A stretch of 64,000 nucleotides of DNA from Nitrospirota bacterium (GTDB lineage: Bacteria > JACPQY01): assembly GCA_016180645.1 (NCBI GenBank), contig JACPAV010000002.1, positions 300,628 to 364,627 of the forward strand. The letters are read 5' to 3'. The notes under the pieces are model-generated. The model was not told the DNA's origin and searched no databases. It was given only the letters and a program-made list of their open reading frames with translations. The translations under genes and the position numbers were made by a program. Below are positions 18,989 to 33,127 of this stretch, piece after piece (positions within the stretch are counted from its first letter, which is position 1; every line of letters begins with the position of its first letter).

Positions 18989-19063
18989 TCAGGAGGCGGA
19001 CGAACGGAGGGCCTTGGCGCCCGGAAAGATGGCGCGTTGGCCAAGGAGTTCCTCGATGCGGAG
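18989..19063 (-). pseudogene. eno: Displaced duplicate 3' end of enolase (att site of the island)
   Basis: [24 protein letters not shown] versus the eno end [24 protein letters not shown]; 19044-19063 is identical to 29918-29937. Confidence 0.9.
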
Positions 19064-19125
19064 ATGAGGCACCCCGCGTGAACCCAACCTTTGCCTGTTC
19101 GGTACTGTAACAATACAATGGCGCC

Positions 19126-20256
19126 ATGATTTACCTTGACCACAACGCCACAACGCCCGTGTTGCCGGAGGTACTTGAGACGATGATGCCCTACTTCACC
19201 AAGGAATGGGGCAACCCCTCCAGCAGCTACAAATTCGGATCCAAATTGAAAACCGTGATCGAGCAGGCGCGGGAGCAGGTAGCTCAACTGATAGGCGCGC
19301 ACCCAATGGAAATCATCTTCACCTCGTGCGCCACGGAGAGCAACAACGCGGCGATCCATGCAGTGCTCAAAGCCAATCCGGGCAAGCGGCACATCATCAC
19401 GTCATCTGTGGAACATTCGTCGGTGCTCAACTACTGCAAGGCACTGGAGAAGGATGGTTATCGCGTCACGTATCTGCCGGTGGATCGCGAAGGGCTGATG
19501 AAGCCGGCGGATTTGGAGACTGCGATCACCGGCGAAACGGCCATCGTCTCATTGATGTGGGCGAACAACGAGACGGGGGTGCTGTATCCGGTGAAAGAAA
19601 TCGCGGAGATTTGCCGGTCCCGCGGGGTATTCTTCCACTGTGATGCGGTGCAGGCAGCGGGCAAAGTGGAAATCGACGCACGAAAAGCGCCCTTAGACTT
19701 CCTTTCACTGACAGGCCACAAATTTCATGCGCCGAAGGGCATCGGGGCGTTGTACATCCGCCGAAAGGCGCCGTTTTCACCTCTCATCGTTGGTGGGCAT
19801 CAGGAGCGACGTCTGCGCGGGGGAACCGAGAGCGTCCCGTTGATCGTTGGGATGGGCAAGGCGGCGGAGTTGGTGGGCAAGAGTCTGCCCGCCTACGACA
19901 AGAGAGTCGGGCCGTTGCGTGATGCGTTGGAGGCCGGGATCCTTGGGTCAATTCCTTACGGGGAATTGAATGGGCATAAGACCTTCCGTTTGGCGAATAC
20001 CACCAACCTCACATTCAGAGGAATCGAATCGGAGGCTTTGCTTTTGCTGCTCGATCAGGAGGGAATATGTGCCTCATCGGGATCGGCCTGCCTTGCCGGG
20101 TCGGACGAACCTTCGCACGTCGTCAAGGCCATGAAGCCCGATTCCTCCGCTTCCCGTCAGATGATCCGATTTTCGCTGGCCCCTTCGAATACGTCCGATG
20201 AGGTATCGGCAGCCGTCGGGGCCGTGCTCCACGCTGTCACCGATTTGCGGGGCTGA
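19126..20256 (+). CDS. dndA: Cysteine desulfurase (IscS/NifS class; probable DndA)
   Basis: YLDHNATTP, GNPSS, NNETG, DAVQ, PLP lysine in TGHKFHAPKG, catalytic SSGSAC; lies inside the island with dndCD. Confidence 0.8.
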   Translation: MIYLDHNATTPVLPEVLETMMPYFTKEWGNPSSSYKFGSKLKTVIEQAREQVAQLIGAHPMEIIFTSCATESNNAAIHAVLKANPGKRHIITSSVEHSSVLNYCKALEKDGYRVTYLPVDREGLMKPADLETAITGETAIVSLMWANNETGVLYPVKEIAEICRSRGVFFHCDAVQAAGKVEIDARKAPLDFLSLTGHKFHAPKGIGALYIRRKAPFSPLIVGGHQERRLRGGTESVPLIVGMGKAAELVGKSLPAYDKRVGPLRDALEAGILGSIPYGELNGHKTFRLANTTNLTFRGIESEALLLLLDQEGICASSGSACLAGSDEPSHVVKAMKPDSSASRQMIRFSLAPSNTSDEVSAAVGAVLHAVTDLRG

Positions 20257-20266
20257 CTTCTCTCTC

Positions 20267-20599
20267 ATGAAACTTCCGGCGGACACGGTGATCGCCCCCG
20301 AGAAGGTGACGCGATACCTGCTTGTACAGTATGCCCGTGGCGACAAGTCAAAGTTTCTGGCGGCGGCAGGCTATTCTCTCGAAGACCCTGACAGGCTCCT
20401 CCACGATCTCCGCGCGCAGATTCTCCCGTTGGAGGCAACGGCCGTGGAATCGAATCAGTTCGGGGAATATTTTGAAATCCGAGGCACGCTGACCGGCCCC
20501 AACGGCGTAACGTTGGCTATCCGAACCATCTGGCTCAAGGAACGTTTGTCCGGCGCCACGAAATTCGTTACACTAATTCCAGACAGGCGGAAAAAATGA
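20267..20599 (+). CDS. DUF6883-like putative toxin (copy 2)
   Basis: MKLPADTVIAPEKVTRYLL...DKSKFLAAAGY...FVTLIPD; paralog of 5597-5923. Confidence 0.7.
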   Translation: MKLPADTVIAPEKVTRYLLVQYARGDKSKFLAAAGYSLEDPDRLLHDLRAQILPLEATAVESNQFGEYFEIRGTLTGPNGVTLAIRTIWLKERLSGATKFVTLIPDRRKK

Positions 20600-20838
20600 C
20601 GGAATTGACATTGTACAGAGATGCCGTGCTCACGGCCGACCTGCCCAAGCATGGCCTCAGGCGTGGCGATATCGTCAAATTGGTGGACCACCATGTTGCT
20701 CCAGATGGGACGGAGGGTTACTCCATCGAGGTGTTCAATGCCGTGGGCGACACCATCGCCGTCACCGCCGTTCCAGCCGCTTCGCTCGAACCCCTAAGCG
20801 AGAACGAAATCCTCTGCGTCCGCCCCCTCGCCGCGTAA
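20596..20838 (+). CDS. DUF4926-like protein (copy 2)
   Basis: DLPKHGLRRGDIVKLVDHH...GYSIEVFNAVGDTIAV; paralog of 5920-6162. Confidence 0.75.
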   Translation: MTELTLYRDAVLTADLPKHGLRRGDIVKLVDHHVAPDGTEGYSIEVFNAVGDTIAVTAVPAASLEPLSENEILCVRPLAA

Positions 20839-20988
20839 TATCGTCCGATTCCCCCCGCCTCAGGGTCCACCCCCTACCTGAAGCTTCGTCCAAATGTGCC
20901 AAACCCCATGCCTTACCCCGGCCGTGCGGTTGCCGCTCGGGCCGCTCTTGAGGAGCGTGGAGGCCTCTGCTAGACTCCGATTGAGATC

Positions 20989-21162
20989 ATGACCATTACC
21001 ACGCTCGCCCAAACTATCCGCCACCTTCCTACTCCGGACCGGATCAAGCTCTTTGATCGGCTTGGCCCGACGCTGGAAGATTACCTTCTCGCCAAGATAG
21101 CCTACGACCGCTTCAGGAAGGCATCTCACAAGCGGATTCCCTGGGCGGACCTCAAGCCCTGA
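20989..21162 (+). CDS. Putative antitoxin of the RelE toxin (57 aa)
   Basis: Not in the track: MTITTLAQTIRHLPTPDRIKLFDRLGPTLEDYLLAKIAYDRFRKASHKRIPWADLKP*; ends 2 nt before relE; LED...IPW.DLK tail typical of antitoxins. Confidence 0.65.
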   Translation: MTITTLAQTIRHLPTPDRIKLFDRLGPTLEDYLLAKIAYDRFRKASHKRIPWADLKP

Positions 21163-21164
21163 CG

Positions 21165-21443
21165 TTGTACAAGGTCGAATTCCTCGAGGAAGCCGCACAG
21201 GACTGGCTTGACCTCGATCATTCCGTCCGCAAGAGACTTTTCGCGGCCATTGAACGATTGAGGTCGCATCCCGATCTGTACGGGAAACCTCTCGCCCAGC
21301 CTCTCCACCGTCTGCGACGCATCCGAAGCGGCGACTTCCGAATCGTCTACAGGGTGAACGAAGGAACCAAGACGGTCGAAGTTGGAGTCGTCTGCCACAG
21401 ATCGCAGGTCTACCAAATCGCCCTCCGTCGCCGGCTCGTCTGA
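21165..21443 (+). CDS. RelE/ParE-family toxin
   Basis: YKVEFLEEAAQDW..LD, GKPL...L..LRRIRSGDFRIVY, HRSQVY. Confidence 0.85.
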   Translation: MYKVEFLEEAAQDWLDLDHSVRKRLFAAIERLRSHPDLYGKPLAQPLHRLRRIRSGDFRIVYRVNEGTKTVEVGVVCHRSQVYQIALRRRLV

Positions 21444-21556
21444 ACCTCCCGCATAACGCCGCGGTTCACGCGCGCCAAGGGGGAGTGGCACAATCGGGGT
21501 ACATTCAAAACCACGCTCTGGCGGAATTGCGAGATCCGCGCTGTCGGGGGGAATCG

Positions 21557-21817
21557 GGGGACGCCATACTTATTTGTGAATTGAGTACGGTATCCCGGGA
21601 ATCCAGACCGTATCGAGCCATCGAGAGAATGCTCACAATCACGTTGTCGGGATCAGCCTTGTCCGTGCTGCCCCACGGAGTGTCAGAACACGCCGGACTC
21701 AAAGTATCAACCCCCATGCGCCATGCCAGCCGCCGCGAAATGTCCTGTGTCTAGAGTTGACCCCACTGCCCGCTAGAGTTGACCCCACTGCCCGCATCAA
21801 CCCCCATGCCTGACCCC
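21557..21817. repeat. Cluster of REP-like elements of both GGGG..CCCC families
   Basis: ggggacgccatac..gtacggtatccc (21557-21596); tcaacccccatgc twice; 22-bp tandem ctagagttgaccccactgcccg x2. Confidence 0.75.
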
Positions 21818-21852
21818 CGCCAGCCGCCGTTGATTTCACCTTCACCCGCAGA

Positions 21853-22851
21853 TCAGGGAAATAGCACCTCCGAAAAGGATGGGAAGTATCGATACACCTC
21901 CGCATATCTCTTGACATCCGATTCAGGCACGCCGGGCACGCGCAGTTTTCCTGAGGATATCTTGGGCAACTGCGAGTTAAGATGACGAATTTCTTTCGGC
22001 GTCAGACAGGGCGCCTTTATGTGGCAAGGATCGGAACTGGCGCGAATGAACGGCAACGTATCAAAGTTGCACTCTAGGAATTTCTGCTCCTCTTCCGCAC
22101 GGAAAAAGATTCCACCGACCGTAACCATCTGGGCTCCATCCTTGTAGCGGAAGTGAAATAGTTGCCGATATTGGACCTTTTCATTCAGCGGAAGCATTGA
22201 ATTTCGCAAAGATATTTGCTCGGAAATTACGTTATCAATGACCTTGCGAAACACGCTAGCAAGCCCTTGACCACGCAAGTCAGTTCCAGAAGTGCCAGCC
22301 GGCAGTTGCCCCCCCAAAAGCTCCTTGGCGATACGCAGGCGATACTCGTCGAGATCGAACGTTTTGCCAGTTTCCTTTTCATACGTTTCGCGATCCTCCT
22401 TGGCTGGCTCGGCGTCTGGGTGTGCGTTTACGGTGACTACCAACGAACTGCCGCTGGCCGCACGCAGACAGACGGTTGCGATATCCCCCAATATTCCAGT
22501 ATCAAGACGATTCTCGTAGTCCAACCATGCGATGGTGCGACGCCGCCAGTCTATTGTAGGCAGAACCTCACCAGAGTTTGCAAACTTCAATTGTATGCAC
22601 CGGTAAGGGCGGTTGAATCGGAAGCAGGCTCTCGACGACGTTTCTTTTTCAATACTCAGCATGTTGGTTATGCCGAGTTCGCGATGGAGGAGTTGGAAAT
22701 CGCTGAAGTAGATGGAGCCAAATCCCACGTAGCGGTATTCCTGAATCCGCTGGAAGGGATGCAGACGTTCGAACGCCGCACACAGCATCCTCCGTTCAAT
22801 CGCCTTTCCCGGACGCAGTGCATAGTTGATGATTCGGAAGCTGTCCGACAC
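21853..22851 (-). CDS. Putative SAM-dependent methyltransferase-fold protein (Methyltransf_35-like)
   Basis: INYALRPGKAIERRM, YRYVGFGSIYFSDF, MLSIEKE, IAWLDY; GTG overlaps the GHKL stop by 1 nt. Confidence 0.6.
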   Translation of the reverse strand: MSDSFRIINYALRPGKAIERRMLCAAFERLHPFQRIQEYRYVGFGSIYFSDFQLLHRELGITNMLSIEKETSSRACFRFNRPYRCIQLKFANSGEVLPTIDWRRRTIAWLDYENRLDTGILGDIATVCLRAASGSSLVVTVNAHPDAEPAKEDRETYEKETGKTFDLDEYRLRIAKELLGGQLPAGTSGTDLRGQGLASVFRKVIDNVISEQISLRNSMLPLNEKVQYRQLFHFRYKDGAQMVTVGGIFFRAEEEQKFLECNFDTLPFIRASSDPCHIKAPCLTPKEIRHLNSQLPKISSGKLRVPGVPESDVKRYAEVYRYFPSFSEVLFP

Positions 22852-24215
22852 TATTCTTCCCCTTCGGCTTCGTAGCGCATGAAATATTCGAACGTTTTCT
22901 CCCCAACGCCAGTGAAGGTTTTCGATTTAAGAATCAGCTTGGCTCTCTCAACCTCACTCGCAGGCTTCCAGTATTGAATTCTACACATTCTCGGCCCGGC
23001 AGCGGCGGGAGCCATTGACGGAGCTACGAAATTACCCCCACGCTTAATCATGTTGACCTGTTTCGAGTCGGCGGTCTCGATTGCATTTTCGAGGGGATGT
23101 TGGCCCTCACCGGCAGTCTTTTCCTTGACAAGATTAGTTAGAAAAGTCAGTACCGGCCTGGTCATCTCGATCATCTCGCGCTGGACAGCCTTGTAGACGG
23201 GGGAGTCGGCGTCCACTCCGGTTTTCGTCGTTGTCCAAGGCAGCAAAGAACCATCATCAGAGTCGAGATAAGCGTAGCCACGAAAATAGGCAAAATCAGG
23301 ATGGTATGCCCGCATGTTGTGACGATTCCCCCAGACTGTTGCGTCTGATTGGTCGGCGCGCAATATTAGGCGTCCGTTGCAGAAGACATACCAGCCGCCA
23401 TCGTGGAAGCTACGCTCCGCAACGCCAGCATATAGCCTTACTCGCACCGGCGGGCCCGGCTTACCTACGAGTATTTTGCTCGGATAAGACTTCTCCACAT
23501 AGCCGGGCTGCAACATCTTCGAAACAAAAAGCTCCTGCGGATCATGCTTGATCGGCAGACCGTTCAAGGTGATGGCAAGCTCGCGATCCAAAGTTAAGGG
23601 GTGAGCTTGGCTCATCTCCTCTGCAAGCCTGCTCTTAAAGTTATCCAATGCGAAAGTATCCGCAACATTCGCCAGGAGCCGGTCGACCTCGATGCGCGTG
23701 CCGGTGTCCTTCTCCGGAACGTGCAAACCAGTCTCTAGTTCACTGAAAGTGAAGTGCCACTCCTCGGGAGATTGGGCATCAGCCATCCATTGATCCACAT
23801 CGACATCCACCGTGAATCGCGCCTCCCTTGTTGTCGAGCGCACGACAAAATGGCGTCCAAGCCTAAAGAAGGTCCGCTTCATGCCTACTCCGAACTGTCC
23901 CATTGAGCCAGGGGTGCCCTCAGTTTCTTCTGGCCGCCCAAAGCGAAATGCGTAGCCGCGTGCGACATCAACGGGAATTCCGCCACAGTTATCGGCAATG
24001 AGAAAATGCCTAGCATCCAGTTTCATTTCCACCCTTAGCCCGCCATAGTTGCCAGCGGGACGAAGTCTCCGTGCTCCGTCCACCGAATTATCTACGAGAT
24101 CAAGAATGGCTCGCGTTAGCGGGATGTCCCTTGTGAGCATGTGAATGAAGAATTCCTTTGTTGGAGACGCATTGATGAGCTTCTGCCCACCTTGGGAGGA
24201 TGAAGTAGGTGCCAT
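22851..24215 (-). CDS. GHKL (MORC/MutL-like) ATPase
   Basis: DLVDNSVDG (N box), DNCGGI (G1), GQFGVGMK (G2), S5-like GWYVFCNGRLI. Confidence 0.85.
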   Translation of the reverse strand: MAPTSSSQGGQKLINASPTKEFFIHMLTRDIPLTRAILDLVDNSVDGARRLRPAGNYGGLRVEMKLDARHFLIADNCGGIPVDVARGYAFRFGRPEETEGTPGSMGQFGVGMKRTFFRLGRHFVVRSTTREARFTVDVDVDQWMADAQSPEEWHFTFSELETGLHVPEKDTGTRIEVDRLLANVADTFALDNFKSRLAEEMSQAHPLTLDRELAITLNGLPIKHDPQELFVSKMLQPGYVEKSYPSKILVGKPGPPVRVRLYAGVAERSFHDGGWYVFCNGRLILRADQSDATVWGNRHNMRAYHPDFAYFRGYAYLDSDDGSLLPWTTTKTGVDADSPVYKAVQREMIEMTRPVLTFLTNLVKEKTAGEGQHPLENAIETADSKQVNMIKRGGNFVAPSMAPAAAGPRMCRIQYWKPASEVERAKLILKSKTFTGVGEKTFEYFMRYEAEGEE

Positions 24216-24219
24216 GCGT

Positions 24220-25701
24220 CTACCTCCCCCCATCACGCCAGAATTGGCGGGCTGGGCCGGTGATGAGCTTGCCTTGCAAGCGCAGAGCGGCTTCGGCTTT
24301 CGTGAGTTTCTGATGAACCACACCGCCGAGGATCATTCGTTGTTCGGCGTCTTTCAGCGTGTGCGGCGAGAAGTGGGCTCCGCATTCGGCCAACTCGGCG
24401 AAATTGGTATCGTTGGCGCCCGGCGTCAGGAATTTATCGGCGTCCTGCGAAGCCAGCCAGACGGGGAAGCCCCATGATCGACCCTGCCTCGCGAGCAGGC
24501 TCAGCAGGCCGGCCTTGCTCTCCTTCGGCAGAATCAGATGCGCTTCATCCACAAATAGCACCATCTTGAGAGGCTGGATGTCATTCTTCACGGCCAGTTG
24601 CCGGCTCAATTTCTTGATGAGGAAGTTCAGAATGAGGGCGGCCGACAATGCCTTCGTATCGTTGTCCGTCCCGAACTCCTTGAAATCGATGACCAGGGAA
24701 CCATTCAACCATTCCTCCGGGGTGATCGCGGTCCGGGCGGAGGCGAACAGATTGAACCGCTCGATCTTTTGAACGATGCGCTGTTCAACACCCTCCGTGC
24801 CGCTGTTCACGAGCTCCGCCGACAAGGACGCGAAATCCGGTTCGGCGAGTCGCTGGTAGCAGTCGCTGAGATTGCCCTCCTGTCTAGCGCCGAGTTGCGG
24901 CGCGAAGCATCGGATAAGGCCCGCCATCTCGTAGGCAACCTGGGCATTCTGTGTTGGGTTCTGATGGCGGTAGAGTGGGTTGATCGGCAGGCTCTGCTGG
25001 ATCAGGCGGACATACCGCGCGCCGGTCTGTTCCAGGAAGCGCCTGCGATTCTCCGTCTGCCTTGCGTCCTTGGGATTGTCTTCAAGCTCGCCCTTCATGT
25101 CGAAAAACACGAAACGAACGCCACCATTCGCCGCTTGCGCCAGGAGGTCGAGCGCAAGCTGGCTCTTGCCGCTGCCGGGTTGACCGGAAATCACCAGCAA
25201 GCCGTTGTTCGTGCCCGGACCGTTTACCGACCATTCCGGACCGTCCGTCAATACTTTCAATTTCACTTCGGTCTCGACCACCGGCATCGGTCGAGCGACG
25301 GGCTCCGCGCCGGGAAGCCCAGACTCGCCACTCGCCAAACGCAAGAGAGACGCCACGAACCGGGCCTGATCGTTCCCCGATTCCGACCATATCTGCCCCA
25401 AGCGTTGGCAGCCAAACTCAAAGTGACGACGAAACTCCTGCCGGTACCCGGCTTCGTCGAGGGTCCGTCCGGCCCGGTGGTTCAATGCGGCGCGGACCAG
25501 ATCCCGGAGATCATCGCCGACAACCTGCTCGTCATTCAGCGTCACGCCTTTGGAGTCCTTGGGTTTGTACTCGGTGGGCACGCCCTGCCCCAGAGCGAGG
25601 AAGAGCGCCGCGCGTCCGACAATCGCCTGATTCCGCGCGCCGACGCGGGCAAAGACGTTCTCGATGAACTCGTGAGCTTCGCCGCTGGTCTCGAATTTCA
25701 T
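24220..25701 (-). CDS. DndE-like domain fused to a HerA/FtsK-type P-loop ATPase
   Basis: N-terminal ~120 aa: AIVGRAALFLAL...DSKG..L....VG...FRRHFEFGC (DndE-like). C-terminal: GQPGSGKS, FVFFDMKGE, LFVDEAH, RQGRSWG, LASQ. Confidence 0.75.
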   Translation of the reverse strand: MKFETSGEAHEFIENVFARVGARNQAIVGRAALFLALGQGVPTEYKPKDSKGVTLNDEQVVGDDLRDLVRAALNHRAGRTLDEAGYRQEFRRHFEFGCQRLGQIWSESGNDQARFVASLLRLASGESGLPGAEPVARPMPVVETEVKLKVLTDGPEWSVNGPGTNNGLLVISGQPGSGKSQLALDLLAQAANGGVRFVFFDMKGELEDNPKDARQTENRRRFLEQTGARYVRLIQQSLPINPLYRHQNPTQNAQVAYEMAGLIRCFAPQLGARQEGNLSDCYQRLAEPDFASLSAELVNSGTEGVEQRIVQKIERFNLFASARTAITPEEWLNGSLVIDFKEFGTDNDTKALSAALILNFLIKKLSRQLAVKNDIQPLKMVLFVDEAHLILPKESKAGLLSLLARQGRSWGFPVWLASQDADKFLTPGANDTNFAELAECGAHFSPHTLKDAEQRMILGGVVHQKLTKAEAALRLQGKLITGPARQFWRDGGR

Positions 25702-25964
25702 GGGCCTTTTCCTTCCCGAACAAGCCGCTGCCCTGTGGGAGAGGCCCAAAAAGCTGCGAGAACGCCGTCGCGGAATTCTTCGTAAACCCCTCGATCAGCC
25801 TCAAGCATCTTGGCTGCCTTTCGCGCAGCGCGGCGAAACTCAGCCGCAGTTTGCCAGTCCAGCGTACTGTGAAATATCTCGTTGCGCATGATCTCTTCAA
25901 TCATCCCTGCGTCCACCGGACTGCAACCCGTAGCTTCGATGATGTCTTCAGCGTAGCCGCTCAT
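25698..25964 (-). CDS. Hypothetical protein (88 aa) in the dnd operon
   Basis: AAGGAGG RBS upstream; ATGA-coupled to the downstream DndE-ATPase gene. Confidence 0.7.
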   Translation of the reverse strand: MSGYAEDIIEATGCSPVDAGMIEEIMRNEIFHSTLDWQTAAEFRRAARKAAKMLEADRGVYEEFRDGVLAAFWASPTGQRLVREGKGP

Positions 25965-25982
25965 GGTATTCCTCCTTCGTTG

Positions 25983-28046
25983 TTACAGGTCCTTTCCGAA
26001 GTAGTCGCTTGTGATGCGCACTTCGTAGTTCGGGCTGTCGGGTCTGCCATGCGGGTGCAACGTGTAGGCACGCGCAAACCGGCCACGGGCGCGGTCAAAC
26101 AGCGGTCCATCCGGATCAATCTCAGCATTCGTGCTGAGGATGATGGACTGGTGGCCGCTGAGGTAAAGCCGGTCGAGCACGTTGGCGCGGACTTCTTTGT
26201 CGAGGCGGGCCAGTGGCGTGTCCACAACCAGCGGCGGAACGAGCTTGGCCAGACGACGCAGGGCTTCGTAGAACGCCAGCATTCGCACCTGTCGCTGACC
26301 GGCGGACGTGTTCGTTTCCTCCCAGGTAACTTTCCTGCCATCCCGGCGCACGAGCCAGCATTGCCAATGGCCGTCAAAGTCCATGCCCTCGAACTCCCGC
26401 TCCCGCTCGGTAATTTCCACCCACAACTTGCCGACTTCCTCGGAGAGCTTCCGCCGCATCAGAATTGCGGCTCGGCTGCGAATCTCGCCGGCGGCCTCGC
26501 GGTAGCGGGTCGCCATCGCCGCCAAACTTTCGCCCCGCTTGGCACGTTCGGCAATTTCCGACTGCGTCGTCTCCTGGCGTTTCAGATCCACAAGCTCAAC
26601 CTCAAGACGCGCGATTTCGGCATCAATATCCTTCAGTCGTTTGGAGATTTGATCGCGGCGAGTGATGAGGCCGCCCCGCTTTTCGTGGAGTTCCACGCCT
26701 CGTTTGTACGCCGCCGTGTTTTGTTGCATCTGTCTCAGCTTCTGGTTCAACTCGCGTAGCTCAACGTCCATTCGGTCGATCTCCGCACACCTGTCCGATA
26801 GGTCGCGAATATCGCTCTGGTTCAGGGCAAGCTGTCGGCGAATCTGCGCACTCGTGTCGTTGCGGTCGGCAATGTAGATGCGGTCGGGCATCCCTTGCGG
26901 TGGTGGATGGAACAGGCTGTGGAGAGCGTCTTCCAATCGCTTCATGTAGAAGGATTCGACATCAGGTTGGAGCTCGAATTCCTTGGGAACACCACCAAAC
27001 ACGTCCTGCTTTACCTGCGGAATCTTCGGCTCGACCGTGGACTTGGCGCTTTCCCACTCGCGACGACGTTCCTCGGATAGCAAAGCGCCATGCAATTCCT
27101 TGCAGTAGACCCCAAGCAACGAGACCGGTAGAGCCAACTCCCAAGCTTCTGTGAGTCTGGCTTCGAGTTTGGCTTTGGCCCCTGTAAGTTCGCCGCGGCG
27201 TTCTTGAGCTCTCTGCAACTCATCGGGGTCGACTGCTCCAAGCGTTTTCAAGTCGTCTTCGACTTCAACCAGTTCGGCTTCGACTTCTTTCAAGTCGCGG
27301 TCAAGGGTTTCGCGTTCAAGATGTCTGACCTTCAAGTTGCCCTCCACAGTCCTCACCTTGCTGTTCAACTCGTTGAGGGTCGTCAATGGGTCAGGGCCGC
27401 CGGTGGAATTGAACACGCGTGGGATCTTCGAGCTGATCAGTTGACGGAGATCGTTTTCCAGTTCGGCATAGGCCTGAAGGCCAAGGATTCGACTCACGCC
27501 TTCAACGATGTCCTGCTGTCCCAAGTTGATGGCCTGGCTGCGCTCAGCATCGAAAAAGAAGAACCGCGCCAGATGGCGCGGCAGGAAAGCGTCCCGAAGT
27601 TTGTGTATCTCTTGTTCGTCTTGGATGGTGCCCGGCTTGTCGGACCGTGTGGCATGATGCTCCCAGACTGGCGCCGAGTTGGAGCGGAACCGCACTTGGC
27701 GAAGGATCTCCACTTTCCGACTGCCCACTTTGTCATCGCGGAGACTCACCACCGCCTTGAGACGCACTAAGTCTTTACCTTCAGACAGTGCATGCCGATT
27801 GAGCGACTTCTCGAAGGTGAACCGCGTCGCATCTGACCCAGTCTCCACCTTCTTCAAGTCGCCGACGCCGCTCTCGCCGACCACCGCAAGATATAGGGCG
27901 CGCAGCAGGTGAGTTTTTCCGGCACCATTCTTTCCGCCCACGATAACGCCACACTTGCCCTCAAGACTTCGGAAGTCAACGGTGTGCTCGCCGTAGAATG
28001 GCCCAAAGTTCTCCAGCGTTAGTGAGTCGATATGGACTTCCGCCAT
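25983..28046 (-). CDS. dndD: DNA sulfur modification SMC-like ATPase DndD
   Basis: GGKNGAGKT, FFFFDAE, long coiled coil, SAGQRQ, VVDTPLARLD, QSIILSTNAEI; directly follows dndC. Confidence 0.88.
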   Translation of the reverse strand: MAEVHIDSLTLENFGPFYGEHTVDFRSLEGKCGVIVGGKNGAGKTHLLRALYLAVVGESGVGDLKKVETGSDATRFTFEKSLNRHALSEGKDLVRLKAVVSLRDDKVGSRKVEILRQVRFRSNSAPVWEHHATRSDKPGTIQDEQEIHKLRDAFLPRHLARFFFFDAERSQAINLGQQDIVEGVSRILGLQAYAELENDLRQLISSKIPRVFNSTGGPDPLTTLNELNSKVRTVEGNLKVRHLERETLDRDLKEVEAELVEVEDDLKTLGAVDPDELQRAQERRGELTGAKAKLEARLTEAWELALPVSLLGVYCKELHGALLSEERRREWESAKSTVEPKIPQVKQDVFGGVPKEFELQPDVESFYMKRLEDALHSLFHPPPQGMPDRIYIADRNDTSAQIRRQLALNQSDIRDLSDRCAEIDRMDVELRELNQKLRQMQQNTAAYKRGVELHEKRGGLITRRDQISKRLKDIDAEIARLEVELVDLKRQETTQSEIAERAKRGESLAAMATRYREAAGEIRSRAAILMRRKLSEEVGKLWVEITEREREFEGMDFDGHWQCWLVRRDGRKVTWEETNTSAGQRQVRMLAFYEALRRLAKLVPPLVVDTPLARLDKEVRANVLDRLYLSGHQSIILSTNAEIDPDGPLFDRARGRFARAYTLHPHGRPDSPNYEVRITSDYFGKDL

Positions 28047-28048
28047 GA

Positions 28049-29347
28049 TTAGGCCTTCTTCTCTGCCTCCTGTTTCGCCAAATCGTCTTTCAAGATGAAG
28101 AGCAGATCGTCCGGGAGGCCGTGGGCGCGGTGGCTTTCGCTGTATTCCTCCACCTTGGCAAGCATCCGACGGAGCGTGTCGGTGTTGATCCCCTTTTCCC
28201 GGGCGATTTCGTCCTCCAGCTCCCGAAGTTTGTTGAGTTCCTTCAGATCCGTGCTCATCATGACACCTCGCTGTTTGTTGAGGATACGGGCGACGCCCCG
28301 GCCGTCATCGGGATCGCGCGCGGCCTTCCACATTTGTTGGATCAAGAGGAGCTCCTCGGAGGCTATAATGGGCAAACGGGTTTCCTCCTGCAACGCGAGC
28401 AATCGGGCCAGCAACTCACGCCGGGCCTCAATGTGCAAAGGCCCCGGGCCCTTGTCGCCATTCATCCGTTTCATGTCGCGCTTGCCGTTGGCGGGGTCGC
28501 GGTAGAACTGTAGGGTTTCTCGAAATTCGATGAGCTTCTCCATCCGCTCGTCGCCGGCGGCCAGCAGCCCCTCACTGGCTTTGTCGCGATCCACCACGGT
28601 GCAGGTCCAGCAGCCGAAGCGGGAGTTGCCGCAGCTTGGAGTGCTGGTGTCGATCTGAATGGGACATTCACCGTTGGAGGCGCTGGAGTAGAGTTTGTAT
28701 AGTGCGCGGTTGTCGCCACCCCAGGGGTTCGGCGTTTGGAGGAGATAGGCCCAAACTTCCTCGGTGGTCAGGTATTCGATTGGATTGGAGACCCACACGC
28801 GCGGCAGGTCCGGGTGACGGCGCAAGCCGTTGCGGGTCTCGATACCCGCCATTGTTTGCGCCCGAGTTGCGCTTTCCTCCCGCCGCGCCCCCAAATGCAG
28901 GATGGCATCGCCCCAGTGTCCTATCCGTTTCTTTACAAAGTCATTTACCGGATCTATCTTCATCCGCTGAGTACACCAACGAAAGGTGCGATTGGGAGGG
29001 GGGTATCCACGCCCGATGATGTTGACCCAGAACGATTGTTCGGCCGGGGGTTTCAGGAGGTGGGCTTCGAAGTTCAACTCGTTCTGGCTGGAGAACTTCC
29101 TCATTTTGTCGAGCGTGCCCTCTACCATCCCGACGATGGCCGGGATTTCCACGCGCGTGTCCGTACAGAGGAGATTGATCGGCTTCTTGCGATTTTCCCT
29201 GGGGATGGACGCGACCGCGTCGAAGAGGAGCGAGGCCAGCATGGTGCTGTCCTTCCCCCCGCTGAATCCGACGAGCCACGGACGAGGATCCTCGATGTAG
29301 AGGCGGCTGAGGGATTCGCGAATTTCTTGATATCCGCCGGTCACCAC
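28049..29347 (-). CDS. dndC: DNA phosphorothioation sulfurtransferase DndC (PAPS reductase family)
   Basis: PWLVGFSGGKDS, DTRVE, IGRGYPPPNRTFRWCTQRMKI, ECP...TPSCGNSRFGCWTCTVV. Confidence 0.93.
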   Translation of the reverse strand: MVTGGYQEIRESLSRLYIEDPRPWLVGFSGGKDSTMLASLLFDAVASIPRENRKKPINLLCTDTRVEIPAIVGMVEGTLDKMRKFSSQNELNFEAHLLKPPAEQSFWVNIIGRGYPPPNRTFRWCTQRMKIDPVNDFVKKRIGHWGDAILHLGARREESATRAQTMAGIETRNGLRRHPDLPRVWVSNPIEYLTTEEVWAYLLQTPNPWGGDNRALYKLYSSASNGECPIQIDTSTPSCGNSRFGCWTCTVVDRDKASEGLLAAGDERMEKLIEFRETLQFYRDPANGKRDMKRMNGDKGPGPLHIEARRELLARLLALQEETRLPIIASEELLLIQQMWKAARDPDDGRGVARILNKQRGVMMSTDLKELNKLRELEDEIAREKGINTDTLRRMLAKVEEYSESHRAHGLPDDLLFILKDDLAKQEAEKKA

Positions 29348-29429
29348 GGGCGACAGTAAGCGACCCCCAGCGAGCTTGTCAAGCCGGGCCTGCCACAGGG
29401 GAGGAGGTCGGCAAAGTCAGGGAAGAATC

Positions 29430-29686
29430 GTCATTCCCGCGGAGGCGGGAATCCAGAGCTTCTTGATTTCACTGGACCCCCGCCTTCGCGGGGGTGACGG
29501 ATAGGGTCGGGATTCCATTCTCATGATTCCCGATTGTTCATGGGCAGTTGGCATGGAACCTGCCGTGACCGTGGCCACAGGGGTACGTTAGGGGTTGCGA
29601 GGAAAGAACCTACTCAATTTTCCATCTTCTCGTCATGCCCGCGGAGGCGGGCCTCCAGTCTGGATTCCCGTCTTCACGGGAATGAC
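29430..29686. repeat. Two GTCATTCCCGC..GCGGGAATCCAG / CTGGATTCCCG..GGGAATGAC palindromic repeats
   Basis: Copies at 29430-29498 and 29632-29686, each a long imperfect hairpin. Confidence 0.8.
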
Positions 29687-29862
29687 GGAGCGAGGGACTT
29701 GTTCACTTTGTTTCCACGCGACCCCTTGCCTCCGTCTCACCCCCTTTTCCCGGCTTGGCATGTTGGCTTGGAAACGAGTTGTCAGAGTTGAGTGGGGCGT
29801 AGGGAATTCAGCATCCAACGGCGTCTCGCTTACGCCGCCGACTATGCTGACCGTGCGTGGAG

Positions 29863-31348
<1,486 letters not shown>

Positions 31349-31450
31349 CGGGCGTGAACGTAACGGAAGCGGTCCGCATTCGCAAGAGAAAACGGGGTCA
31401 ATTTCCGGGTTTACGCGGCCGGCCGATCATGGTATGGCTGGGCTCCGGCG

Positions 31451-31774
31451 ATGAACGCCCCATCAACAAACATCGAAGTTCGCATCCCATCGCCCGTCTG
31501 GATCATGCTCACACTGATGTGGGCCTTTCTAATCGGACTAGGGTTCATGGTCCGGCTGCCCAACGAGTCCCTCCAGGGTTTCATCCGATTCGCCTTCTGG
31601 GTCGTTCTGATCGCACACTTCGGCGAGGGCCTTGTCGGCGCCTATTTCGGTTTCCAAGCCAAGCAGAACCCCGTGAAGTGGTTTCTCCTCACCGTGTTTC
31701 TCGGCTTTCCGGCCTGGATAGCCCTGCGCCGGGCGATTCGCAAGGCCCGGATTCCTGCTTCCGCCAAGGCCTGA
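31451..31774 (+). CDS. Hypothetical membrane protein
   Basis: 107 aa, three hydrophobic segments. Confidence 0.6.
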   Translation: MNAPSTNIEVRIPSPVWIMLTLMWAFLIGLGFMVRLPNESLQGFIRFAFWVVLIAHFGEGLVGAYFGFQAKQNPVKWFLLTVFLGFPAWIALRRAIRKARIPASAKA

Positions 31775-32258: not shown

Positions 32259-33053
32259 TCACTCTTCGAGGGGGAGATCTTTTCGATTTCCCCATTCGCC
32301 CCACGATCCGATGTAGTTGCGAACCCGATCCGCTCCGATCAGCCAAAGGGCCAGAAAGGTGTGTGCAGATCGGTAGCCGCCGTGACAGTAAGTAATGAAC
32401 TCCTTCTTGGGATCGATCCCTACCCCCCGGTACACACTCTCCAGTTCGGAGGGCGGCAGAAAGTATCCGTCGGACGTCAGATTCCTCTTCCACTCCACGT
32501 TCACGGCGCCGGGGATGTGCCCTCCTCGATCCGCACGCACGTGTTGTCCTGAAAATTCATCCGGCGTCCGGCAGTCGATGATCCTCGCTCCCATGCCTGA
32601 GAGGTTTGAATGCGTCGAATCGACCGTCGCCAGGAGTTCGGCGCGCGGCGTGTACTGAAATCCCTCGATTCCCGGAAGCGCCGCCGGGTCGGTCGAAAGG
32701 TCGTGGCCGCACCGCAACCATTCGCGCAATCCGCCGTCCAGCATGAGCGGTTCCTTGAATGAAAAGTAGTGAAGTACCCAAATCATCCGCGCGGCAAGCA
32801 TTCCCGAGTAGCCCTCGTAGACCACCGTGGTCCGGTCGGGATGGAGTCCCGCCTCGCGCAGCCCCGCCGCCATCCACTCATTGAATTTTTTCATTCCAGC
32901 CTGGGTCGTATCGAACCAATGGTACTCCCAGATGTCGAAAAGAATCGCCCCGGGGATGTGTCCCTTGTCGTATTCCTCCCGCGGCCGCACGTCCACCACC
33001 GCGGCGTCCTGAAGGTGTTCCCGCAGCCAACTTCCTTCCGTCAAAATGCGCAT
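32259..33053 (-). CDS. Tandem-domain rhodanese (thiosulfate/3-mercaptopyruvate sulfurtransferase)
   Basis: Two GHIPGA motifs, LDGG, active-site YCHGGYRS, YIGSWGEW. Confidence 0.9.
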   Translation of the reverse strand: MRILTEGSWLREHLQDAAVVDVRPREEYDKGHIPGAILFDIWEYHWFDTTQAGMKKFNEWMAAGLREAGLHPDRTTVVYEGYSGMLAARMIWVLHYFSFKEPLMLDGGLREWLRCGHDLSTDPAALPGIEGFQYTPRAELLATVDSTHSNLSGMGARIIDCRTPDEFSGQHVRADRGGHIPGAVNVEWKRNLTSDGYFLPPSELESVYRGVGIDPKKEFITYCHGGYRSAHTFLALWLIGADRVRNYIGSWGEWGNRKDLPLEE

Positions 33054-33127
33054 GAGAAGGGTGAAGTATAGCAGCATCATGATGGCGAAGGTTGTGTTCG
33101 CCGCGAAAGTTCCTTATATTGATTTCC

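Follow-up and report, generated by a model that had tools for sequence, protein, structure and literature searches.

The question raised by this locus is what a GHKL ATPase and a methyltransferase-fold protein do at the end of an operon for DNA phosphorothioation (PT). The locus lies in a stretch of 64,000 nucleotides (nt), hereafter the window, from a Nitrospirota bacterium (assembly GCA_016180645.1, contig JACPAV010000002.1, positions 300,628 to 364,627), and comprises six genes on the minus strand (21853-29347) with a desulfurase gene convergent to them. The last two genes, GHKL and MT35, are an obligate, translationally coupled two-gene unit. This pair has been widely transferred and is an undescribed partner of DNA-modification modules of three chemistries, which it has joined several times independently. 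The features concerned are as follows, in order of transcription (lengths in amino acids, aa).

28049-29347 (-): dndC, PAPS-reductase/PP-loop sulfurtransferase, 432 aa (family models and translation)
25983-28046 (-): dndD-like ABC/SMC-type ATPase with coiled coil, 687 aa (family models and position)
25698-25964 (-): orf88, small accessory open reading frame (ORF) between dndD and dndEi (ORF, junctions and tblastn)
24220-25701 (-): dndEi-type fusion of an N-terminal DndE and a C-terminal HerA/FtsK-like P-loop ATPase, 493 aa from ATG 25701
22851-24215 (-): GHKL+S5 (MORC/MutL-like, paraMORC-type) ATPase with C-terminal extension, 454 aa
21853-22851 (-): MT35, class-I methyltransferase-fold protein of PF20553 (Methyltransf_35), 332 aa
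19126-20256 (+), convergent with the operon: NifS/DndA-like cysteine desulfurase, class-V aminotransferase, probable dndA

A genome scan of one genome per species, using the GHKL alignment as query, gave 218 confirmed relatives. The locus counts given here refer to the best 80 of these 218 relatives (80 species genomes; loci are cited by L number) with flanks of up to 10 kb, in which neighbours were identified by tblastn with the proteins of the window, ORF clustering and Pfam. MT35 was found by tblastn directly downstream of GHKL in 79 of the 80 loci, the sole exception (L047) being a locus that ends 122 nt after GHKL; MT35 is cut by the contig end in L026, and L032 retains only a 118-residue piece of it. 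Stop/start spacing between the two genes is mostly -1 or -4 (73 ORF-called loci). The association also holds from the side of MT35: PF20553 is rare, occurring in 3/401 and 3/401 genomes of two class samples (each count including the centre genome), and GHKL lies upstream in all six matching genomes. The only other species genome of the window's phylum (GTDB-232; same family, 84% complete) lacks a PF20553 gene. Decayed copies were also met, as in G187 (L091/L092), where GHKL and MT35 are both frameshifted and each is split into two frames.

The earlier note on this DNA had proposed, from the window alone, that the GHKL and methyltransferase-fold genes are coupled to dnd, and the neighbourhoods bear this out. 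Fourteen other loci carry the whole dndC-dndD-(small ORF)-dndEi-GHKL-MT35 cassette, under record titles of Deltaproteobacteria, Nitrospirota, Actinomycetota, Verrucomicrobia, Acidobacteria and Binatia; identity to the window is 46-78% for GHKL and 37-77% for MT35, tracking that of the dnd genes. Ten further loci link the pair to other dnd clusters. In six of them (L017, L018, L024, L025, L035, L062) dndBCDE or dndCDE follows convergently right after MT35, L077 has the order dndB-GHKL-MT35-dndC-dndD, and L013, L014 and L015 are dnd variants. Four of these loci (L017, L018, L024 and L035) have a second DndD-like ABC ATPase and a superfamily 2 (SF2) helicase upstream of GHKL, resembling a Pbe/CxC-like module, and dndCDE convergent downstream (plus dndB in L017 and L018), so that the pair stands between two Dnd-family modules.

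Specificity of the pair for PT was not borne out. A Dcm-type C5 methylase (four cluster members checked by Pfam) adjoins the pair in 41/80 loci, lying immediately upstream on the same strand in about 30, and the companions of these Dcm-linked pairs include Vsr (10 loci), an HhH-GPD glycosylase (10) and HNH_2 (6). In the Dcm loci and in the window cassette, the modifying genes have no conserved partner other than the pair. Plasmid pR24_2 of Microvirga terrae has a distant pair (GHKL 30%, MT35 27.6% identity) flanked by drmMI and drmA, in a DISARM operon with the order drmD, MmeI-like methylase, GHKL, MT35, drmA, DUF1998, drmC. On pSymA of S. meliloti (L094) a decayed copy was found, with the MT35 gene interrupted by ~2.8 kb and Dcm nearby. 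The left-end cargo of the Pseudomonas filamentous phage PfAC20 consists of GHKL (33% identity), MT35 (31.5%) and Dcm; it has been published only as 'a cytosine methyltransferase, incomplete R-M' (restriction-modification), and sister phages carry toxin-antitoxin, IetAS, Avs or ShosTA systems at the same cargo site (PMC11878078). Current defence models miss the pair, hence the scoring of its Pf prophage as 'incomplete R-M' in that analysis. GHKL, MT35 and orf88 each matched 0 PADLOC-DB v2.0.0 families at E <= 0.01; none of the three matches a named anti-phage system of that database. A PADLOC scan of 53 large neighbouring ORFs identified BrxL, PtuA, MzaA, SspH and Old/GajA/AriA-like proteins, as well as a methyl-directed restriction endonuclease (REase) and PDC-S01, at one or two loci each.

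The history of these linkages was examined in a GHKL tree of 77 rows ('quick' LG+G4), which omits L007, L012, L028 and L062 (GHKL shorter than 400 aa) and the second copy in L079. One starred (99) clade of 25 GHKLs unites 14 cassette rows, six other dnd-linked rows and five cyanobacterial stand-alone pairs; the clade itself lies within a set of Dcm-linked rows. Linkage to dnd is independent in L024, L035 and L077, which fall elsewhere on the tree. Context labels need 16 changes on the tree against a mean of 33.2 when shuffled, a value reached in 0/200 shuffles (which ignore relatedness). All five genomes with cyanobacterial stand-alone pairs hold DndC above cut-off elsewhere (E 1e-211 to 1e-220), as do 0/5 of the Dcm-type genomes examined; these cyanobacteria are close kin and so count as about one event.

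The GHKL protein matches PF13589 (35.8 bits, cut-off 25) and belongs to a large, well-conserved family, with 50-79% identity under very different phylum labels. In a 27-homologue alignment the invariant residues are D39/N43/D46-G47, D75-N-C-G-G79, G106-x-F-G-V-G-M-K113, G172-T173 and P-W-T-T-T-K331-T-G, which we take to be the N-box, DxGxG and GxxGxG ATP-binding motifs and the S5 lysine K331, all intact. Its AlphaFold model (predicted local distance difference test, pLDDT, 81.7) has MORC2, MORC3 and Hsp90 as top Foldseek matches (E 1e-12 to 1e-10 over ~420 columns). The ATP-binding motifs and S5 transducer lysine that mark MORC/paraMORC ATPases are thus present, on the basis of PF13589, the alignment and Foldseek.

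MT35 is assigned to PF20553 at E 9.6e-103, and its model (pLDDT 91.5) adopts a predicted Rossmann class-I methyltransferase fold. The nearest structures are nucleic-acid methyltransferases, namely Tt1595, RlmO, RsmD-like and Trm1 (VIA Z 14.7-13.3; for 1wxw, VIA Z 14.7, root mean square deviation 2.9 over 165 aligned residues), and Foldseek template modelling scores are only 0.3-0.44. Among 63 members the invariant residues are G43-x-G45 after strand 1, E68 at the end of strand 2, N80-x-P82, W109-x-D111-Y112 on strand 4, D123, D238 and E287; their placement in the model is compatible with binding of S-adenosylmethionine (SAM). Clustered at 50% identity, PF20553 accounts for 2340 representatives in a set of 1.84 billion proteins. 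Lengths are 293-453 aa in the best 150 of these representatives, which include no long fusion, and a search for longer proteins gave no fused form, weak evidence in itself. A profile of the 63 members had 0 matches at E <= 10 to the sequences of solved structures, and Foldseek against viral models returned generic methyltransferases only. When PF20553 was excluded in the Protein Atlas, the nearest clusters were viral hypothetical proteins (0.90-0.91), which serve as a lead only. Prediction of a GHKL + MT35 complex gave a best score of 0.26 against a mark of 0.32, in a run without controls. No paper on PF20553/Methyltransf_35 and no biochemical data for PF20553 were found in the literature search.

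The other genes of the operon, dndC, dndD, orf88 and the DndE::ATPase fusion, are predicted to form a PT-modification module together with the convergent NifS-like desulfurase. DndC scores 375.1 bits with TIGR03183 (cut-off 290.4) and 3.1e-125 with PADLOC DndC, and its translation shows an SGGKDS PP-loop plus a C-terminal Cys cluster. The dndD product is closest to PADLOC DndD (3.1e-60), with PbeC close behind (1.6e-59); it scores 162 bits with TIGR03185, under the cut-off of 245.85, and has AAA_23/SMC_N matches. No CxC motif was seen in its translation when read by eye, and placement of the gene between dndC and dndE fits DndD. The DndE domain of the fusion matches PF08870 at 29 bits (cut-off 25; residues 19-117 of the longest ORF) and at 32.6 bits in the genome search. 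It reaches just 16.8 with NCBIfam TIGR03184, far under the cut-off of 71.85, which makes it a divergent member of its family.

The ATPase part of the fusion has AAA_10, HerA_C and TrwB matches, a PADLOC mad8 match (2.5e-17) and a match to the C-terminus of DndH (1e-3). The earlier note had counted this HerA-type ATPase in an effector trio with GHKL and MT35. That grouping finds no support: the ATPase is fused to the sole DndE match in the whole genome, and is likewise fused in all 14 full cassettes. The DndEi architecture and the lack of any other DndE in the genome assign it instead to the modification module. A separate observation concerns the dnd cluster of a Candidatus Accumulibacter metagenome-assembled genome (L013:12425-13972, minus strand), where the dndE position is taken by a 515-aa FtsK_alpha + FtsK/SpoIIIE protein; it may represent another DndE/FtsK-type fusion or replacement, of independent origin.

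The source genome is 97% complete and gave no match to DndB. It gave none to DndF or DndH either, a weak absence as both models were silent in control genomes too. The earlier description of a dnd operon without dndB or dndFGH therefore stands, and the dnd part appears, from its gene content, to be a known variant (DndEi type, no DndB/DndFGH).

What the pair does for such modules can be approached from its position and its folds. We favour, with a probability of roughly 0.5, the reading of the pair as a sensor/effector tied to modification: MT35 would inspect the DNA, and a GHKL dimer would provide ATP-driven clamping or looping. The locus would be a composite of a PT-modification module (NifS-like DndA, DndC, DndD, a DndEi-type fusion, an optional small ORF and no DndB) and a two-subunit GHKL/MT35 module that plugs into an adjacent self-marking enzyme, whether a Dcm 5-methylcytosine (5mC) methylase, a DISARM methylase or Dnd. 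In the source genome, PT marks may serve the pair as the 'self' signal. MT35, probably SAM-bound, would give nucleic-acid binding or base inspection to the complex that the two proteins presumably form, and the GHKL dimer would clamp or loop the DNA under the drive of ATP. Telling self from non-self in this way, the pair would either counter incoming DNA that is unmodified or enable some other host activity to counter it, with an anti-phage outcome. This reading is favoured because the pair holds the position of the R gene and fits the paraMORC prediction of 2008 (PMC2292703). Of the alternative effector or second-modification module of the earlier note, what survives is the coupling of GHKL/MT35 to dnd; membership of the HerA ATPase and PT specificity do not. 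A bolder form, in which the pair is a nuclease-free, mark-agnostic reader-effector whose MORC-type clamp and methyltransferase-fold inspector entrap or silence any DNA without the self-mark (5mC, N6-methyladenine or PT), seems to us rather doubtful.

Several observations weigh against the sensor/effector reading. No nuclease or other recognisable effector domain is evident in GHKL or MT35, as the earlier note had already remarked for nucleases, and in the 27-member alignment no acidic or His cluster is conserved within the C-terminal extension of GHKL (approximately residues 340-454). The strand-4 motif of MT35 is D-Y-[DE]-G and differs from DPP[FY], which we take to be the strand-4 motif of its nearest structural neighbours. 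Other effectors are already present beside some pairs: DrmA, DUF1998 and DrmC in the DISARM operon, and the Pbe-like helicase with a second DndD-like gene in L017, L018, L024 and L035. Such coexistence means that the pair may be an accessory or a regulator and not a restriction component.

A modification gene was not seen in the fetched flanks of 13/80 loci. In three of these (L021, L031, L076) the sequence breaks off shortly upstream of GHKL, and the contig of L058 is 3 kb long. Five of the 13, including L031, are the cyanobacterial stand-alone pairs; the pair lies between housekeeping genes in L026, L032 and L039, and a DUF2887 protein is upstream in L043. The source genome itself has three unlinked Dcm-type C5 methylase genes (on contigs C53 and C20, L099-L102, with two of them 4 kb apart on C53). 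To these points may be added the 'quick' nature of the tree, the neglect of relatedness in the label shuffles and the kinship of the five cyanobacteria. No experiment on any member of the pair was found in the literature.

Some of the same observations would suit a pair that serves the modification side, a reading that is less probable and yet to be taken seriously. MT35 would then be a working methyltransferase that uses SAM, with GHKL loading or gating it. It would either place a second mark (on DNA, RNA or protein) or control the sites and timing of Dcm, DrmMI or Dnd action, for instance by keeping these enzymes off incoming DNA or by completing hemi-modified sites. MT35 has the full class-I methyltransferase fold, a glycine-rich loop and conserved acidic residues, and the pair is always found beside the modifying enzyme, after Dcm, drmMI or dndEi or between dndB and dndC. 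Its coexistence with systems that already hold nuclease or helicase effectors points the same way, as does the lack of a DndB regulator in the window cassette. A stand-alone protective methylase, however, needs no tie to another modification enzyme, and the strand-4 motif departs from the DPP[FY] of the nucleic-acid methyltransferases nearest to it in structure. Furthermore, 41 loci have a bare Dcm plus the pair and no other candidate partner, an arrangement that resembles an R-M operon in which the pair would take the place of R.

A role in repair or damage avoidance is improbable. A MutL-like ATPase and its partner would process lesions caused by the mark, such as T:G mismatches from deamination of 5mC or nicks at PT sites. 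The MutL/MORC-like character of GHKL and the presence of Vsr or an HhH-GPD glycosylase (10 loci each) with Dcm-linked pairs would agree with this, and PMC2292703 cites a report that MutL of E. coli works together with Vsr. Such companions are frequent beside any Dcm, however, and about half of the Dcm-linked loci have neither Vsr nor a glycosylase; a mismatch-recognition component is not present, and the DISARM adenine-methylase context and the prophage cargo position fit defence better.

It is very improbable that the pair is a guard which senses loss of SAM or phage inhibition of the modifying enzyme, with MT35 as SAM sensor and growth arrest exerted via GHKL. The partner enzymes all share SAM as cofactor: Dcm and DrmMI use it, and PT modification in vitro reportedly needs it too (work by Pu et al. 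in 2020). SAM-pocket-like residues are kept in MT35, and such a model needs no nuclease. On the other side, a toxic effector domain is not evident, the conserved GHKL+S5 architecture speaks for a function exerted on DNA, and the model is speculation from domain content only.

Finally, that the two genes are chance neighbours, an unrelated mobile insertion beside the dnd operon, is next to negligible and already largely refuted: G+C does fall to 0.53 at 22001-24000 (~0.59 around) and the pair also stands alone between housekeeping genes in cyanobacteria, but the seven-gene cassette recurs in 14 other species genomes with pair identities tracking the dnd genes, overlapping stop/start codons join the genes, and the GHKL tree and DndC trans-linkage (5/5 stand-alone genomes, 0/5 controls) speak against it.

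The layout of the operon, described beforehand as six co-directional genes with tight junctions, was confirmed at each junction from the sequence. dndC and dndD are separated by 2 nt (TAA-TC-ATG), and the 18-nt gap between dndD and orf88 contains a Shine-Dalgarno-like GAAGGAGG upstream of orf88. orf88 and the DndE::ATPase gene share an ATGA overlap, the latter ends in TAG 4 nt before GHKL, and GHKL and MT35 overlap by 1 nt (TAG/GTG). The start of DndE::ATPase was taken at ATG 25701 (the longest ORF begins at TTG 25749), and that of GHKL at ATG 24215, shorter than the longest ORF, because the resulting 454 aa equals the length of its homologues. A promoter/terminator scan of 19000-30000 gave counts not above those of shuffled sequence, and an Rfam scan of 19000-31500 gave zero matches. 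Among the sequencing runs listed, four of DNA, all from a single study, contain this genome, and none of RNA does.

orf88 had no Pfam, PADLOC or NCBIfam match. Homologues (44-73% identity, tblastn) occupy the same position in 4/14 full cassettes (L002, L006, L008, L012) and none was found by tblastn in the remaining full cassettes; orf88 is probably an optional accessory of the cassette. One cassette, that of L003 (7353-8930, plus strand), encodes between dndEi and GHKL an additional protein of 525 aa whose class-I methyltransferase domain is of an ordinary kind (Methyltransf_25/11).

The desulfurase matches PF00266 (1e-86) and PADLOC DndA (3e-145); with TIGR03402 (NifS) it scores 521.5 bits against a cut-off of 530.75, and with TIGR03235 387 against 480, both below. 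A counterpart with 66-78% identity lies convergent downstream of MT35 in 12/14 full cassettes, and in related cassettes the desulfurase is within ~2 kb of MT35, usually directly after it. The conservation of this placement supports the enzyme as the DndA of the cassette. Of the remaining loci of this kind, L007 and L028, whose upstream parts are cut, also keep a 66-78% desulfurase, in L020 the identity is 40%, and L011 lacks the gene. Between desulfurase and MT35 the window has an inserted DUF6883/DUF4926 pair (20198-20838, plus strand; 133 and 80 aa, with stop/start overlap), which may be a small toxin-antitoxin-like insertion.

Three further observations were made around the operon. The 515-nt spacer between dndC and an enolase gene holds three copies (29429-29687; two direct, one inverted) of a 28-nt GC-rich palindromic element (CGTCATTCCCGCGGAGGCGGGAATCCAG-like), which resembles repetitive extragenic palindromic elements and for which the chance expectation is none (0/100 shuffles). 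About 60 nt past the MT35 stop codon, the 22-nt unit CTAGAGTTGACCCCACTGCCCG forms an exact tandem duplication (21751-21794). A tandem-rhodanese (sulfurtransferase) gene lies beyond the enolase, ~3 kb past dndC (32259-33080, minus strand), and could be an unrelated housekeeping gene or a sulfur-relay helper.

Among known systems, the modification module is most like the DndEi-type Dnd of Riemerella anatipestifer and other Bacteroidota (PMC6435447, PMC7464106), with which it shares DndC, a DndD-like ATPase, a cysteine desulfurase, and a DndE joined to an extra ATPase domain in one polypeptide with no separate DndE in the genome. DndEi is a DndE with an added helicase/ATPase domain, which is reported to be necessary for PT modification in R. 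anatipestifer (PMC6435447; also PMC7464106). The extra domain in the window differs in being HerA/FtsK-like (mad8 2.5e-17), the likeness being one of architecture; the window cassette also differs in having no DndB and, like all 14 full cassettes, in always including the GHKL/MT35 pair.

Like DndFGH and PbeABCD (CxC-ABC; PMC10853773, PMC6459918), the pair occupies the place of a partner module linked to PT. DndH combines a methyltransferase domain that is inactive with a captured HerA/FtsK ATPase, a parallel for a methyltransferase-fold reader in a PT-linked partner (PMC10853773). No sequence relation to DndFGH or Pbe was found, the pair has no REase or HKD nuclease, and its coexistence with Pbe-like genes in L017, L018, L024 and L035 means that it is not simply a replacement for these modules. 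According to the 2024 reappraisal of Dnd, numerous nucleases occur near dnd genes, and of 3416 taxa with a nuclease in the modification neighbourhood, 806 have DndFGH as well; neither 'MORC' nor 'GHKL' appears in its main text (PMC10853773). No description of the pair or its Dnd link was found in the literature, although the supplementary neighbourhood tables of PMC10853773 and PMC2292703 may list such cases. Many dnd clusters are without DndFGH, and the pair is a testable candidate for the reader of PT in such genomes: a PT- and methylation-linked effector without obvious nuclease.

In the MutL-MutH and MutL-Vsr partnerships, a GHKL+S5 ATPase and a small partner act in dependence on the modification state of DNA. 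The partner here differs in having a methyltransferase fold and not a restriction-endonuclease (RE) fold, no MutS-like sensor accompanies it, and the context is one of mobile defence islands. The modification-dependent MutL partnerships are also discussed in PMC2292703. Class 1 DISARM is approached through the distant pair inside the pR24_2 operon; the window has no drmA, drmB, drmC or drmD, and the pair is not a described DISARM component.

The closest comparison is with the GHKL+S5 'paraMORC' ATPases, predicted in 2008 by Iyer, Abhiman and Aravind in R-M operons with Dcm and Vsr (PMC2292703). Shared with these operons are the GHKL+S5 ATPase with C-terminal extension, the sporadic lateral distribution (PMC2292703) and neighbours such as Dcm, Vsr and sometimes HNH (41, 10 and 6 of the 80 loci). 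The partners described for paraMORC ATPases include SF2 helicases along with RE-fold, HNH or TIR nucleases, where the pair has a methyltransferase-fold protein, and linkage to Dnd or DISARM is not mentioned there (PMC2292703); the loci of the pair have no conserved helicase or nuclease. GHKL/MT35 is thus a candidate variant of paraMORC-type R-M-like systems and a candidate PT-dependent effector. As a compact module of two genes, widely transferred, it has become linked to PT, 5mC and DISARM modification genes repeatedly and independently, and Dcm-GHKL-MT35 is a simple three-gene form for work on mechanism. If it should prove to be a mark-agnostic reader-effector, it would add to DndFGH and Pbe a third mode of PT-dependent restriction, and be a prokaryotic counterpart, possibly a forerunner, of MORC-based epigenetic silencing in eukaryotes.

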